This document shows positions 3,138 to 10,294 of a stretch of 15,044 nucleotides of DNA, piece by piece. Made by a program: the position numbers and the translations under genes. The DNA is from a virus (Duplodnaviria; Heunggongvirae; Uroviricota; Caudoviricetes): IMG/VR virus record IMGVR_UViG_2713897056_000007; one strand, written 5' to 3'. Each line of letters begins with the position of its first letter. The stretch's first letter is position 1. The notes under the pieces are model-generated. The model searched no databases. It saw only the letters and a list, made by a program, of their open reading frames with translations, and was not told the DNA's origin.

Positions 3138-3293
3138 TTACTCCTCAGGTTCGTAGACTGTGAAGACAGCGACCTCCATCTGGCCGGTTCGGATTCGTAC
3201 CTCGCAGAGGTCTTTCCTCGTTACCAGTGCCGTCACTATGACGGTTAAACAGATGACGATCAGGGCGATTAACATCGCCTTTTGCTGCTTCAT
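3138..3293 (-). CDS. hokD: Hok-family type I toxin (HokD/RelF-like small membrane toxin)
   Basis: ATG at 3293 with AAGGAG 9 nt upstream; 51-aa product MKQQKAMLIALIVICLTVIVTALVTRKDLCEVRIRTGQMEVAVFTVYEPEE, near-identical to my recollection of HokD/RelF. Track ORF 3138-3350 is the same frame extended 19 codons upstream to an ATG at 3350. Confidence 0.85.
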   Translation of the reverse strand: MKQQKAMLIALIVICLTVIVTALVTRKDLCEVRIRTGQMEVAVFTVYEPEE

Positions 3294-3504
3294 AGCCTGC
3301 TTCTCCTTGCCTTTCGGCACGTAAGAGGCTAACCTAGATTTGCCGTTCATAGATTGAGCCTCAGATTAATGTTAAGCGTCTTGCAGGACGCGTAATGTTA
3401 ACTGGGGCTTTTCTCTATCTGCCTTTGGTGTTCATGCCTGAGGCAGATAGCCTCAAGCACCCGCAGCAATTCTACTTAACTCCCGTCACCTCGCCAATAT
3501 AAAA

Positions 3505-3594
3505 TCAATCAGAAAGGCGATCCATAAGAACAACAGCAAGACAATAAATTGCCATTACAGCCGCAATAGCTAGCGCACATTTGAGAACCAGCAC
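3505..3594 (-). CDS. Candidate small hydrophobic peptide (29 aa, GTG start), unannotated-type sORF upstream of hok
   Basis: GGAGG then 5 nt then GTG at 3594; translation (M)LVLKCALAIAAVMAIYCLAVVLMDRLSD is a single predicted transmembrane helix. A candidate promoter TTGAAT-17-CATATT lies upstream on the minus strand. Below the track's length cutoff; coding status unproven. Confidence 0.25.
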   Translation of the reverse strand: MLVLKCALAIAAVMAIYCLAVVLMDRLSD

Positions 3595-3910
3595 GACAAC
3601 CTCCTGTATTGGACGTACACCAGTTCTGATAAATATGAGGCTGTCTCATCATTGATTCAATATAACTATTGGGTATAGTTTCTGTGATTTTGTTCTGTAG
3701 AAATGGAACACAACAACCAGTCACCACCAGCACTTCTTTAAATACGCCAAGTCCGACGCAAGCTAACCTTCTAGTCCGCTTTGAGCGATCTGCAGACATT
3801 GCTAGCAGCCTTCTGTGTGAATTCTCAGGGAGCAGGTCGGCATAGCATCACGTTGAGGCTCTTACCCTACTTGTTGACACCAACCCTAACTCCACAGACT
3901 GATTCATAAA

Positions 3911-4912
3911 TTAGTAATCTGCGTGTTTCGCACTTTTCAGAAATGCTTTCATATTTTCATTAGGTCGCTCAATTTCGAAGTTACTTCCATATAACTCTTG
4001 TAATTTTGGCCATAACTTACTTAATAACCCTCTCCTGCGATAAAATGGATGTATCCAAACGGTAGATAGGTACGGAGAATTTGCATTTGAATTGTTTATT
4101 GTGACCAGCCCAACTAAACATTGTCGATAACCACTATTATCCATTGATTGTATTTCTTCGACGAATGGATACGCGATTACATCAGTCCAACCATGATCGG
4201 TTGTATCCCATTGCATTCCGTCATGACATTCCTTCGACTGATAGCGGCGTAAAGCTACACACGCGAGCTTTTGCCAATCTGGAGAATTAATTGTGATCTC
4301 TTCATCGTATGACGCGCCTATTGGAGCGGGTATTGGTCTGATTAATCCAGCATGGCATTCATCATAGAACTTCATGTTTCCCTCAGAAACGTTGTGTACG
4401 TTGGGTTGCTCCATGTGTGCGCCATTCAAAAATAGCTCTGATAGTAGTGTATCTACACTGTAATCTTTATTGATTATTGTCGGCTTAGAGTTTTTCTTAT
4501 TAAGGCCGCGAGTAACGATTTTTTGATCAATGTTAACAACATGGAATAATCCGTCGGGGAGGCTAGCGAACCACGATGGGGCATCGGACCAGAATAGCAT
4601 GCCTTTTGTACTTCTTAAGAGTTTAATTAAGTTAATACAAGCTTCTTCACTAGTCTTGCCGTTGATGCGAAGTATGTTAGGACTAAAGTAATATTCATCC
4701 ATATCAGGGAATGCAGCTTCGCAAAACTCCTGTACATAATTTAGCACCTGGATTCTACAGAGATCATCATAGCTGGTAATAACTAAGGGGGTATCTTCAT
4801 TACTATTATGATTATCAATAATGCAATCTATAGCGAGACTTACTGCTTTGCGTATCACTTCAGTTGAATCTAACGACTCTAAAAATTTTGTCTTTCGTGT
4901 GCGAATATCCAT
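3911..4912 (-). CDS. Hypothetical protein, downstream gene of AT-rich two-gene cassette; weak GNAT-like motif near C-terminus
   Basis: 333-aa ORF, ATG at 4912, 15 nt after the stop of the upstream cassette gene. N/K/I/Y-rich, AT-rich coding sequence unlike its neighbours. C-terminal ...CLVGLVTI...YLSTVWIHPFYRRRGLLSKLW loosely resembles the GNAT CoA-binding strand-helix; tentative. Confidence 0.7.
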   Translation of the reverse strand: MDIRTRKTKFLESLDSTEVIRKAVSLAIDCIIDNHNSNEDTPLVITSYDDLCRIQVLNYVQEFCEAAFPDMDEYYFSPNILRINGKTSEEACINLIKLLRSTKGMLFWSDAPSWFASLPDGLFHVVNIDQKIVTRGLNKKNSKPTIINKDYSVDTLLSELFLNGAHMEQPNVHNVSEGNMKFYDECHAGLIRPIPAPIGASYDEEITINSPDWQKLACVALRRYQSKECHDGMQWDTTDHGWTDVIAYPFVEEIQSMDNSGYRQCLVGLVTINNSNANSPYLSTVWIHPFYRRRGLLSKLWPKLQELYGSNFEIERPNENMKAFLKSAKHADY

Positions 4913-4927
4913 GTATGACCTGCGCTA

Positions 4928-5950
4928 TTAAAATTCATGAATGAACGGTTTGTCATCTGGTTGCAAAATGGTGGTTTTATTCGTTGCTACATTTAAACTG
5001 TTGTAGAGCATAATTGCCAGGTTCGATGCATTTTCAATCAGCGTTTCAAGATCCTGGTCTGTAATCACTACGAGGTTCCCTTCTTTATCCTTTCCACCAC
5101 GATGCACTAAGTGATTTCGATTGAGGGTTGCCAATTCAATAGCTTCTATCGGACAGTCTTTTTGTACTTTTATATCGAATGTAGCTTCATAGCGGTCGAT
5201 TACCTTTTTAGTGCTATGCCAGCTTGCACTGATCAAGTGTTCCTTGATTGACCTGATTAGCTCTCCCCTAATTTTCTCGATGGGTTCACCCTTGAAAGGC
5301 AACGCAGCAATATCTTTGCTTACTTTAAATTCAGTCTTACCTTTTTCTATACAATTGGCTATGTAGACATCATCTTTCTCTATAGAATTAATGAATAGCT
5401 CAACATAAAGCGTTTCCAAAGCTGTAATAACATTCGTGTAGAGCAAACTAAGCAAGTGGTTTTTTTGCTGTTGTTCAGTTTTATCTTTTGCAAGTTTTTT
5501 TATTTTATCGATATTATCAATGAATTTTAAATACGGATTACCGGAAGACGTTACAGCGTCGTAGATATCATCATCGTACCAATCATCTATATTATTTGAG
5601 TTTCCAGACCAGTCAAAACATTGTGTTTGTAATTCATCTACTAATTCCTCAATATACTCAGATTTAACATATTGACCGAAGATGGATTGTAGTTCTTCGC
5701 TCGCATCATACGGCCCGCCATATATGTAAGCATAGCCACCTTCTCTACTTTCATACGGACAAGCATTTGCCGGATCTTCAAAGTTTTCAAAGAACCAGTT
5801 TTTCATTACTTCGAGTTGATCTTTTTTGCTTATGTATTTTAAAGATTTTAGTGGAACTTTCTTTCCATTAACCTCGAAAACAATTTTCACGATGTAACGC
5901 TCCCTTGTATCAATTGCGCAACTATTATACCACAGCGAAATACAGGGCAT
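4928..5950 (-). CDS. Hypothetical protein with C-terminal HEPN-like RNxxxH motif, upstream gene of AT-rich two-gene cassette
   Basis: ATG at 5950 preceded by AAGGAGG at 6 nt. Alternative GTG start at 5890 (MKIVFEVNGKK...) with AGGGAG SD and an extended -10 TGGTATAAT (5932-5924, minus). Motif ATLNRNHLVHRGG about 50 aa from the C-terminus fits the HEPN Rx4-6H signature. Track ORF 4928-6040 over-extends to a non-ATG start. Confidence 0.7.
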   Translation of the reverse strand: MPCISLWYNSCAIDTRERYIVKIVFEVNGKKVPLKSLKYISKKDQLEVMKNWFFENFEDPANACPYESREGGYAYIYGGPYDASEELQSIFGQYVKSEYIEELVDELQTQCFDWSGNSNNIDDWYDDDIYDAVTSSGNPYLKFIDNIDKIKKLAKDKTEQQQKNHLLSLLYTNVITALETLYVELFINSIEKDDVYIANCIEKGKTEFKVSKDIAALPFKGEPIEKIRGELIRSIKEHLISASWHSTKKVIDRYEATFDIKVQKDCPIEAIELATLNRNHLVHRGGKDKEGNLVVITDQDLETLIENASNLAIMLYNSLNVATNKTTILQPDDKPFIHEF

Positions 5951-6081
5951 AACCTGCCTCCTTAAACTAACATACCATGAGCCAGCAATGTCCGCTATTG
6001 GCACAAAGCGGACAACCACGCTAGCTCTACCCTGTGCCACAAAATGTCAATTTGCATCTGAACTAATGCACTTTAATCTCG

Positions 6082-6504
6082 TCACTTCAATAAATACCGA
6101 ACATCACCCTGATAAAACGACAATATGCGCTGCATAACTTCACTCTTCCGGCACTCGCGACAGATTATGTTCTGACGCCTGTCGTAGCGACGTATTTCTC
6201 CGTCAGGTAATGACCAGATAAGGTCCGGATCAACCGCAGATGGTTTCTTCAGCTTTGCCCTTGAGAGCTTTTTACGGGCATTTTGCCAGTCCTTACGCGC
6301 CTGTTCAGACGGGAATAACCCGTAACCAGAGTTGCATACATCGCCGCTGGCAACCAGCTCTCTTGCGAGAACGCTCATCAGATATCTTGTCGCACCTGTC
6401 TTGACTTCCAGTTGCCGTAACGTCTCACGCCCACTCTGGCGTACGAGTTCAACAACCTGTCCTTTAATTTTTTCCCGCTCTTCTTGTGTAAAAACTTTTG
6501 CCAC
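6082..6504 (-). CDS. Hypothetical prophage protein (140 aa) downstream of the replisome organizer
   Basis: GTG start at 6504 with AGGAGG 4 nt upstream; product MAKVFTQEEREKIKGQVVELVRQSG...RRQNIICRECRKSEVMQRILSFYQGD. No family recognised. Confidence 0.6.
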   Translation of the reverse strand: MAKVFTQEEREKIKGQVVELVRQSGRETLRQLEVKTGATRYLMSVLARELVASGDVCNSGYGLFPSEQARKDWQNARKKLSRAKLKKPSAVDPDLIWSLPDGEIRRYDRRQNIICRECRKSEVMQRILSFYQGDVRYLLK

Positions 6505-9898: not shown

Positions 9899-10241
9899 CT
9901 AACCAACGAAGCTAAGGTTGGTAATTAAGGAGTTCTCCACGGGTGAGGTGGAGTGCGTGCGCCGGACACGGGTGAGCATCCGGCACTGACAGTTTACTGA
10001 AAGGATATTTCCCTGAAAAGTCAGACCATAACGCGAAAGCGCACGGCGAGGTAGCTGGTTCATAGATAGCCTGTCGTTAAATTTTCGTCGACCGTGCGCT
10101 TCCGGTTGTGGCAATCCGCGAAATGGCGCGGCGGTAAGTATGGCGGGGTTATTCCTTCCACCGTTGAGGACACCGGGTTGTCAGGTTGACCATACGCTTA
10201 AGTGACAACCCCGCTGCAACGCCCTCTGTTATCAATTTTCT

Positions 10242-10294
10242 GGTGACGTTTGGCGGTATCAGTTTTACTCCGTGACTGCTCTGCCGCCCTTTTT
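10242..10294 (+). ncRNA. dicF: DicF small regulatory RNA (antisense inhibitor of ftsZ and other mRNAs)
   Basis: TTTCTGGTGACGTTTGGCGGTATCAGTTTTACTCCGTGACTGCTCTGCCGCCC followed by TTTTT matches my memory of the 53-nt DicF sequence including its intrinsic terminator; located just upstream of dicB as in Qin. Confidence 0.85.

Follow-up and report, generated by a model that had tools for sequence, protein, structure and literature searches.

A HEPN-GNAT gene pair in a Qin/Rac-like prophage of Escherichia coli matches the anti-phage system DS-33: distribution, co-inheritance and natural knock-outs

Introduction

The DNA analysed here is the IMG/VR virus record IMGVR_UViG_2713897056_000007 (15,044 nucleotides in all, hereafter the window), and our subject is a two-gene cassette on its minus strand, in which gene A, coding for a HEPN protein, is followed by gene B, coding for a GNAT protein. 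The closest described system is DS-33, working name 'GNAT', one of the replicated systems of DefensePredictor (DeWeirdt et al., Science 2026; PMC13092281). Cloned together with the region predicted as its native promoter into a low-copy plasmid, DS-33 was active in MG1655 and gave 2-6 logs of protection against T7, T3, Bas67 and Bas26 (PMC13092281). The original prediction for the window, a model's reading of the letters alone, described two co-oriented minus-strand open reading frames (ORFs) with a 15-nucleotide (nt) gap as a candidate anti-phage or toxin module, and both frames and the gap are indeed present:

4928-5890, minus strand: gene A (DS-33A, WP_014639476.1, 320 amino acids (aa)), within a stop-to-stop ORF at 4928-6040
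4913-4927, minus strand: spacer between A and B, 15 nt
3911-4912, minus strand: gene B (DS-33B family, WP_000354966.1, 333 aa)

The domain architecture of A, HEPN/RES-NTD1 joined to a MAE_28990/MAE_18760-type HEPN, had already been catalogued (Anantharaman et al. 2013, PMC3710099; KPK_1764). An Abi-like role was predicted there, in which the N-terminal domain would interact with the phage and the HEPN domain would be the RNase; HEPN/RES-NTD1 was found on RES toxins as well (PMC3710099). Unlike the present case, it offers prediction only, and mentions neither a GNAT partner nor a prophage location. PD-T4-2 (Vassallo et al. 2022, PMC9519451), likewise an accessory anti-phage system of E. coli, has a RiboL-PSP-HEPN (PF18735) B subunit, and the DS-33 supplement lists an HHpred-type match of gene A to PD-T4-2_B with a probability of 96.1 over 55% of the protein (PMC13092281). 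However, the HEPN partner in PD-T4-2 is a DUF262/ParB-like NTPase (PMC10952713), HEPN/RES-NTD1 is missing, and the protection is against T4. With no DUF262 gene in or beside the cassette and no PADLOC PD-T4-2 match at E ≤ 1, our pair does not belong to that system.

Single HEPN proteins on prophage or accessory DNA are also represented by HepS (Gifsy-1, PMC13043305) and DARNA/PD-T7-3 (bioRxiv 10.64898/2026.02.22.705581), both of which are constitutively made, activated by phage and cut tRNA anticodon loops; the activator is the tail-tip protein J for HepS (PMC13043305) and single-stranded DNA bound by single-stranded DNA-binding protein for DARNA (bioRxiv 10.64898/2026.02.22.705581). HepS resembles our locus in occupying a lambdoid accessory slot near replication genes, but it has fewer than 250 aa and consists of HEPN only, whereas DARNA combines an N-terminal HEPN with a Pds5-like C-terminal domain. 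Their architectures and the lack of detectable sequence similarity rule out either as the identity of A. HEPN-MNT (HepT-MntA) systems pair the HEPN protein with a nucleotidyltransferase rather than a GNAT; in contrast to them, the two DS-33 genes do not depend on each other, and A carries an additional domain at its N-terminus. In HEPN-MNT systems, MntA AMPylates HepT.

Results and discussion

Identity with DS-33 and requirement for the HEPN gene

Gene A is identical to the DS-33 protein over 320/320 residues (WP_014639476.1), and gene B matches the DS-33 partner (WP_000354965.1) at 332/333 positions (supplementary tables of PMC13092281). The same two proteins occur in the same order with the same 15-nt spacer, and the window pair is a member of DS-33. 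The sole difference is residue 289 of B, a leucine in the tested clone (E. coli assembly GCF_003334765.1) and the common proline in the window; the L289 allele was found on 31 contigs and the P289 allele on at least 1000.

Table S7 of the DS-33 study gives log10 protection in two replicates for mutants on five phages (PMC13092281). Wild-type values were 3.78/2.60 for T7, 3.30/2.40 for T3, 4.0/1.98 for Bas67, 5.0/5.9 for Bas26 and 0.77/0.08 for T5 (PMC13092281). Over all five phages, protection ranged from -0.48 to 0.54 in ΔHEPN and from -0.30 to 0.78 in R258A, the latter in two replicates (PMC13092281), showing that the HEPN gene and the arginine of its motif are required. ΔGNAT gave 4.78/4.30 for T7, 3.30/3.30 for T3, 4.0/3.30 for Bas67, 5.0/4.9 for Bas26 and 1.73/0.55 for T5 (PMC13092281); the GNAT gene is therefore not required against these phages. 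The anti-phage function foreseen for the pair is thus borne out by the identity with DS-33 and the loss of defence in both HEPN mutants, but the implied need for both genes is contradicted by ΔGNAT.

Because these very genes have been published as a defence system and dissected by mutation, the finding is not new and the anti-phage system itself is already known; what we add is its distribution, co-inheritance, natural knock-outs and a caveat on the allele of B. The cassette represents a validated single-protein HEPN defence among the cargo of a prophage widespread in extraintestinal and avian pathogenic E. coli. As the system has been published, its remaining value lies in the trigger of HEPN/RES-NTD1, the RNA that is cut and the reason why a co-diverging GNAT travels along. 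The locus is best explained as an anti-phage defence operon of the moron type, occupying a slot for variable cargo in a lambdoid prophage related to Qin and Rac. We assign a probability of roughly 0.7 to the overall reading, namely that A acts as a solo HEPN RNase defence in this operon and that B is a non-essential accessory.

Gene A encodes a two-domain HEPN protein

5546-5890, minus strand: N-terminal HEPN/RES-NTD1 domain of A, about aa 1-115
4967-5536, minus strand: C-terminal RiboL-PSP-type HEPN domain of A, about aa 119-308
5102-5119, minus strand: predicted catalytic HEPN motif R258-N-H-L-V-H263, in the 320-aa numbering

The HEPN reading was originally proposed from one short motif, and the quoted stretch, ...ATLNRNHLVHRGG..., is present in A. 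By itself the motif is at chance level, since 29% of shuffles of protein A contain an R-x4-6-H and the protein holds a second, non-conserved match at R213. Its significance therefore rests on family invariance, fold and the published mutagenesis, and in these respects the reading stands. Full-length alignments with A were obtained for 36 homologues, down to 26% identity, from Acidobacteriota, Chloroflexota, Cyanobacteria and Desulfobacterota, among others. R258, H263, R264 and E159 are invariant in the family alignment (37 sequences), as is an N-terminal core comprising M29, W32, F33, D39, P40, P45, E50-G-G and G58-G-P60. The predicted structure of A has the four-helix up-down HEPN fold, and R258A agrees with the motif as the functional site.

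At the level of domain families, all 37 members match PF18870 (HEPN/RES-NTD1) at E ≤ 0.01, and 19/37 aligned homologues match PF18735 (HEPN_RiboL-PSP), with a best E of 9.9e-10; the latter match is precomputed on many homologues. Membership of A in PF18735 would follow by transitivity. That neither protein could be placed in a named family no longer holds, as the architecture of A was catalogued in 2013 and the system named in 2026. Searches of NCBIfam returned nothing for A or B, PHROGs yielded only phrog_17908 and phrog_16994, families of unknown function, and no meaningful match emerged when profiles of both families were compared with PDB sequences (best E 0.048 and 0.037). Within NTD1 of A, conservation is highest at aa 41-60 (CPYESREGGYxYIYGGPYDA; window 5711-5770), a stretch that is modelled with a predicted local distance difference test score of about 59. 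This low score suggests a flexible or ligand- or partner-dependent loop, making it a candidate sensing element.

Gene B encodes a GNAT-fold protein with a private N-terminal domain

About aa 1-185, minus strand: N-terminal family-specific alpha/beta domain of B
About aa 186-333, minus strand: C-terminal GNAT-fold domain of B
4022-4054, minus strand: GNAT motif A, I287-H-P289-F-Y-R292-R-R-G295-L-L297, predicted acetyl-CoA pyrophosphate-binding loop

The GNAT motif A consensus is (V/I)xPxx(Q/R)xxGx(G/A). A loosely GNAT-like segment, ...WIHPFYRRRGLLSKLW..., had been pointed out in the downstream protein; it is present in B, where it corresponds to motif A (the P289 codon is 4046-4048), and B has the alpha/beta fold of GNAT proteins, which supports this suggestion. 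Among 39 B homologues, H288, P289 and R292 are invariant and G295 is common, not invariant, while the final G/A of the motif is replaced by L, K or M across the family. Against PF00583, B scores 19.9 bits for a cutoff of 20.7, and 23/39 family members match at E ≤ 0.05. Because motif A is conserved, B is probably an active acetyltransferase.

The tested allele carries leucine at an invariant residue of motif A, and B may consequently matter more than its published dispensability suggests. Comparing P289 with L289 offers a concrete and cheap route to the role of the GNAT partner.

No strong PDB match was found for the N-terminal ~185 residues of B, and a profile search of 1.84 billion representative proteins recovered this domain in no other architecture, returning full-length family members and fragments only. 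The GNAT half, on the other hand, has standalone homologues of ~160 aa (E 1e-37 to 1e-20), which directly follow genes for primases or replication proteins in phages and integrative elements and, on sequence grounds, are an uncharacterised GNAT family associated with mobile genetic elements. Three such ~160-aa GNATs (L155 4001-4483, L156 2938-3420 and L158 4001-4474) follow, and sometimes overlap, primase/replication genes, the preceding genes encoding a DUF3987 protein, an 802-aa primase-like protein or a DUF3631 protein. TacT, AtaT, ItaT and KacT share the GNAT fold with B and are likewise small GNAT genes on mobile elements. These toxins, however, have ~160-175 aa and ribbon-helix-helix/DUF1778 antitoxin partners, whereas B has 333 aa, a private N-terminal domain and an L in place of the final G/A of motif A, and is tolerated alone; at the sequence level, no match of B to TacT, AtaT, ItaT or KacT was found.

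Each family mostly occurs without the other

Immediate neighbours were clustered for A-family neighbourhoods at 80 genome loci from many phyla. A occurred without B in 77 of the 80, with B in only two (plus S88), and no recurring neighbour that could represent a conserved partner gene emerged among the 80 genomes. Some copies of A lie between Mod and Res of a type III restriction-modification (R-M) system, beside a TIR protein or beside an integrase, and others are placed among housekeeping genes. At one locus in a Bdellovibrionales metagenome-assembled genome (L025 2712-8562), the A homologue is flanked by genes for an N6/N4 DNA methylase and for a ResIII helicase subunit, in a type III R-M operon. 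The association of HEPN genes with R-M systems was already noted in 2013 (PMC3710099), and L025 agrees with it.

B homologues at ≤56% identity are all without A and come mostly from marine Gammaproteobacteria; they neighbour an AAA_13 ATPase, an XamI/Eco57I R-M pair or a HigB toxin. A B-family gene on its own is also found directly behind a P4-type primase. Such solo copies, together with the standalone GNATs behind primase and replication genes, raise the possibility that the two genes are independent cargo stacked in a prophage hotspot, A being a solo HEPN defence and B a separate accessory gene of mobile elements with a target of its own (it might defend against other phages, act in counter-defence or modify some molecule of the host or of a phage). 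Since ΔHEPN constructs that keep B fail to defend against the five phages tested, the function of B, if any, would lie elsewhere, and the DefensePredictor score is 1.08 for B compared with 9.45 for A (PMC13092281). Yet an unvarying spacer, one shared promoter and strict co-divergence across several host genera and ~20% amino-acid divergence, as set out below, exceed what hotspot stacking usually produces, and the three loci that hold B alone at 86% identity descend from the pair by deletion rather than from separate acquisitions. We consider independent cargo possible, with a good deal less than even odds.

Co-inheritance of the pair in one clade

Within the enterobacterial/Aeromonas clade, copies of A are 85-100% and copies of B 78-100% identical to those of the window, and the two sets of identities correlate with r = 0.98. 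The 15-nt spacer is identical in length in 42/43 paired loci (L119 is off by 1 nt), and all 209 E. coli genomes that hold either gene have both (209/209). By these sequence comparisons, the A-B pair is inherited as one unit inside this clade.

A more intimate link has been considered, in which the pair would form a two-component system whose GNAT covalently restrains the HEPN protein by acetylating A or its RNA target, infection lifting the brake; B would then be an integral regulator rather than a bystander. The fixed spacer, co-transcription and co-divergence down to ~80% identity over several genera fit such restraint, as does the strict co-occurrence in E. coli. Protection in ΔGNAT was equal or stronger in 9/10 measurements (T7 +1.0 and +1.7 log), as if a brake had been removed; in addition, the tested B carries P289L and is possibly a hypomorph that could mask part of what B does. 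On the other hand, ΔGNAT cells are viable and still defend, IS1 interrupts B next to an intact A in a natural blood isolate, A dispenses with B in most other genomes and the more distant B proteins (≤56% identity) are never with A. The increase in ΔGNAT is also slight, was measured in two replicates and might reflect changes in expression introduced by the deletion itself. The decay products described next, which retain B under the cassette promoter with A deleted, show the usual fate of antitoxin-like genes and count in favour of restraint. On balance we regard it as distinctly unlikely.

Natural decay of A and B

Three B-only loci (L101 7817-7982, L102 6380-6484 and L123 1422-1589) retain the promoter region of the cassette and the last 16-20 codons of A. 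Their B is intact at 86% identity, and in L102 the remnant of A directly follows a P4-type primase. Keeping both the promoter and the 3' codons of A identifies these loci as internal deletions of A, arising in at least two independent events. Another prophage (L106 7644-8606, IMG/VR UViG_2585427777_000024) encodes a 320-aa in-frame chimera of a DnaC-like N-terminus (Walker A GKPGTGKNH) and B residues 133-333, which arose when a deletion took out the rest of dnaC together with the genes in between, gene A and the beginning of B; the chimeric protein is also in NCBI as an E. coli hypothetical protein (P0148).

Single-gene knock-outs also occur in isolates carrying the pair: in the blood isolate SF-173, IS1 lies within B and A is intact, and in the clinical isolate AHB12, A is truncated by IS1 and B is intact. 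Natural knock-outs of either gene argue against a toxin-antitoxin (TA) pair, an alternative that the original prediction had left in play. HEPN and GNAT are both known toxin folds, HepT being a HEPN toxin and TacT/AtaT GNAT toxins, and a two-gene operon in the very slot of the Qin relBE might suggest a classical type II addiction module that replaced relBE and chiefly stabilises the prophage, with either gene as the toxin. In such a module the genes would be expected to co-occur obligatorily and the toxin not to be tolerated alone. We found otherwise, as either gene can stand alone, both in natural isolates and in the laboratory, where ΔGNAT and ΔHEPN strains were plated. Moreover, co-occurrence of A and B is confined to one clade, a DNA-binding antitoxin domain is absent, and proteins of ~320-333 aa are far above the typical size of TA components. 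A TA module is therefore largely refuted and, in our estimate, highly improbable.

Proposed mechanism and points that weigh against it

We propose that A would be a self-contained defence protein, sensor and effector in one, acting without B. In the lysogen, it would be made from the extended -10 promoter of the cassette and stay latent and harmless. Upon infection by T7-like and some T5-like phages, A would become an active HEPN ribonuclease, dimerisation creating a composite R258/H263 active site, and the N-terminal HEPN/RES-NTD1 domain would probably be the sensing or gating module. RNA cleavage would stop translation and phage production, with tRNA anticodon loops or mRNA as the most plausible targets by analogy with HepS, DARNA/PD-T7-3, ApeA and PrrC, and the outcome would probably be abortive infection. 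B, co-transcribed with A, would be a GNAT-fold acetyltransferase with its private N-terminal domain, neither antitoxin nor toxin to A. Most likely it is either a modulator (a mild brake) or has an accessory function independent of A. The slightly raised defence of ΔGNAT, the co-divergence and the derivatives that lost A point to the former, and the solo occurrence of both families and the natural IS1 insertion to the latter. An unlikely but consequential variant is that B acetylates A, or the RNA or protein that A senses, thereby setting the activation threshold or widening the phage range. If that were true, the dispensability of the GNAT gene would be an artefact of the rare P289L allele, and with the common P289 allele the system would be the first acetylation-gated HEPN defence, an acetyl counterpart of the HepT-MntA AMPylation.

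Several observations should be set against our reading of A as a solo RNase and of B as a dispensable accessory. The dispensability of B derives from the P289L allele and from mutant assays on just five phages, and the tight co-inheritance of A and B, together with the somewhat stronger defence after ΔGNAT, fits a functional interaction. For A, support for RNase activity is genetic (R258A); this activity, dimerisation, sensing by NTD1, the proposed RNA targets and an abortive outcome are otherwise drawn from analogy with the systems named above, and the role of aa 41-60 is a guess because this stretch is modelled at low confidence. The DS-33 study does not take the system up in its main text and proposes for it neither a mechanism nor a trigger nor a role of B (PMC13092281). 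Credible matches to PADLOC v2 models were found for neither A nor B. Finally, the profile check suggested by the original prediction succeeded for homologues and failed for the window protein, which scores 22.2 bits against PF18870 (E 1.9e-4) for a gathering cutoff of 27.4 and has no PF18735 match at E ≤ 1; with the window protein under the Pfam thresholds, the family assignment of A rests on its homologues and predicted structure.

A variable slot between hokD and the replication genes

3138-3293, minus strand: hokD
3288-3462: sok antisense RNA, full-length (Rfam RF01794, 111.7 bits), directly downstream of the cassette
6082-6504, minus strand: DUF977 gene
10238-10289: DicF small RNA (Rfam RF00039, 76.7 bits), in the early-left operon

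The window is a Qin/Rac-like lambdoid prophage inserted beside ompW in B2-type E. coli. Along the minus strand, its genes run DUF968, a hypothetical gene, hokD, sok, gene B, gene A, DUF977, the replication genes and cro/cI, beyond which lie ydfABC, DicF, dicB, an exonuclease gene, xis and int; hokD/sok and DicF are features that we take to be typical of Qin-like prophages. The cassette was found in 209/5426 complete E. coli genomes and is 100% identical in S88, UTI89, APEC O1, IHE3034 and the type strain ATCC 11775. Among INPHARED phage genomes it was not found, the DUF977 flank alone giving matches.

The Qin prophage of K-12 has the same backbone, with the order hokD-relE-relB-ydfV-flxA-...-dicC/dicA, so the original placing of relBE, ydfV and flxA in this slot was correct. 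The relBE genes of Qin resemble the cassette in lying in the same slot beside hokD/sok, upstream of the replication/immunity region; in proteins and mechanism, however, the two have nothing in common, and the kinship is positional only. In a sampled survey of E. coli prophages (hits H31-H56), as opposed to a full census, the hokD-DUF977 interval held FRG, RelA/SpoT, DUF4209, QueH, alpha/beta-hydrolase, DUF7167, S-adenosylmethionine-dependent methyltransferase or KilA-N genes. The same flanks thus enclose differing cargo in related prophages, the interval looks like a defence/moron hotspot, and the notion of a cargo cassette in a variable slot is supported. The RelA/SpoT domain resembles CapRel-type defences. 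DUF4209 is counted as a HEPN family (PMC3710099). The hokD-to-replication junction of Qin/Rac-like prophages accordingly serves as a swap slot for conflict genes (relBE, RelA/SpoT, DUF4209-HEPN and FRG).

The AT-richness that had been judged by eye holds when computed over the window: the fraction of guanine and cytosine (GC) is 0.361 in gene A, 0.391 in gene B and 0.378 in the whole cassette, compared with 0.474 in the remaining window. GC at third codon positions (GC3) is ~0.35 in the cassette and 0.49-0.56 in its neighbours, the DUF977, replication and DUF968 genes. However, cI (0.36) and int (0.39) are likewise low in GC3, which weakens the view of this composition as specific to the cassette, as low GC3 is not unique to it within the prophage.

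The cassette also appears, at 100% protein identity to E. coli, on a 3.3-kb contig (L002, JAIHTM010000277.1) of a metagenome-assembled genome labelled Collinsella (Actinomycetota), which is almost certainly binning contamination, not horizontal transfer.

Start codon and upstream signals of the operon

5900-5906, minus strand: ribosome-binding site AAGGGAG, 9 nt upstream of the GTG, conserved
5924-5932, minus strand: extended -10 TGGTATAAT (TGgTATAAT), putative promoter of the A-B operon, read from the sequence
5990-6013, minus strand: inverted repeat GTCCGCT-N10-AGCGGAC (7 bp), at the upstream edge of the mobile cassette

Gene A had been placed from ATG 5950; its start should instead be GTG 5890, giving 320 aa. 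This correction is supported by RefSeq (WP_014639476.1, 320 aa), by homologues in other genera, all of which start MK[IV]VF, and by conservation, the GTG and its ribosome-binding site being kept across genera while the position of ATG 5950 reads TTG, TAC or ATC in other cassette copies. ATG 5950 is preceded by a good Shine-Dalgarno sequence, and a minor 340-aa form from this codon is conceivable.

The extended -10, which sits between GTG 5890 and ATG 5950, reads TGGTA(T/C)AAT in every aligned cassette copy, and we infer that it drives the A-B operon. A simple sigma-70 scan of the window did not report this promoter because its -35 is poor. Downstream of gene B, no intrinsic terminator was found. 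DNA homology among cassette copies begins at the inverted repeat, which is kept with the cassette in Serratia and in metagenome loci and could be an operator, an insulator hairpin or a recombination site.

Between sok and gene B, a 96-aa Cys-rich ORF (MSADRSKRTRRLACVGLG...CCCSYGSPF; 3509-3799, minus strand) is unannotated in RefSeq. It recurs with few substitutions in the prophage that carries the DnaC-B chimera (L106 8718-9008), and may be a non-coding leader of the hok locus rather than a gene.

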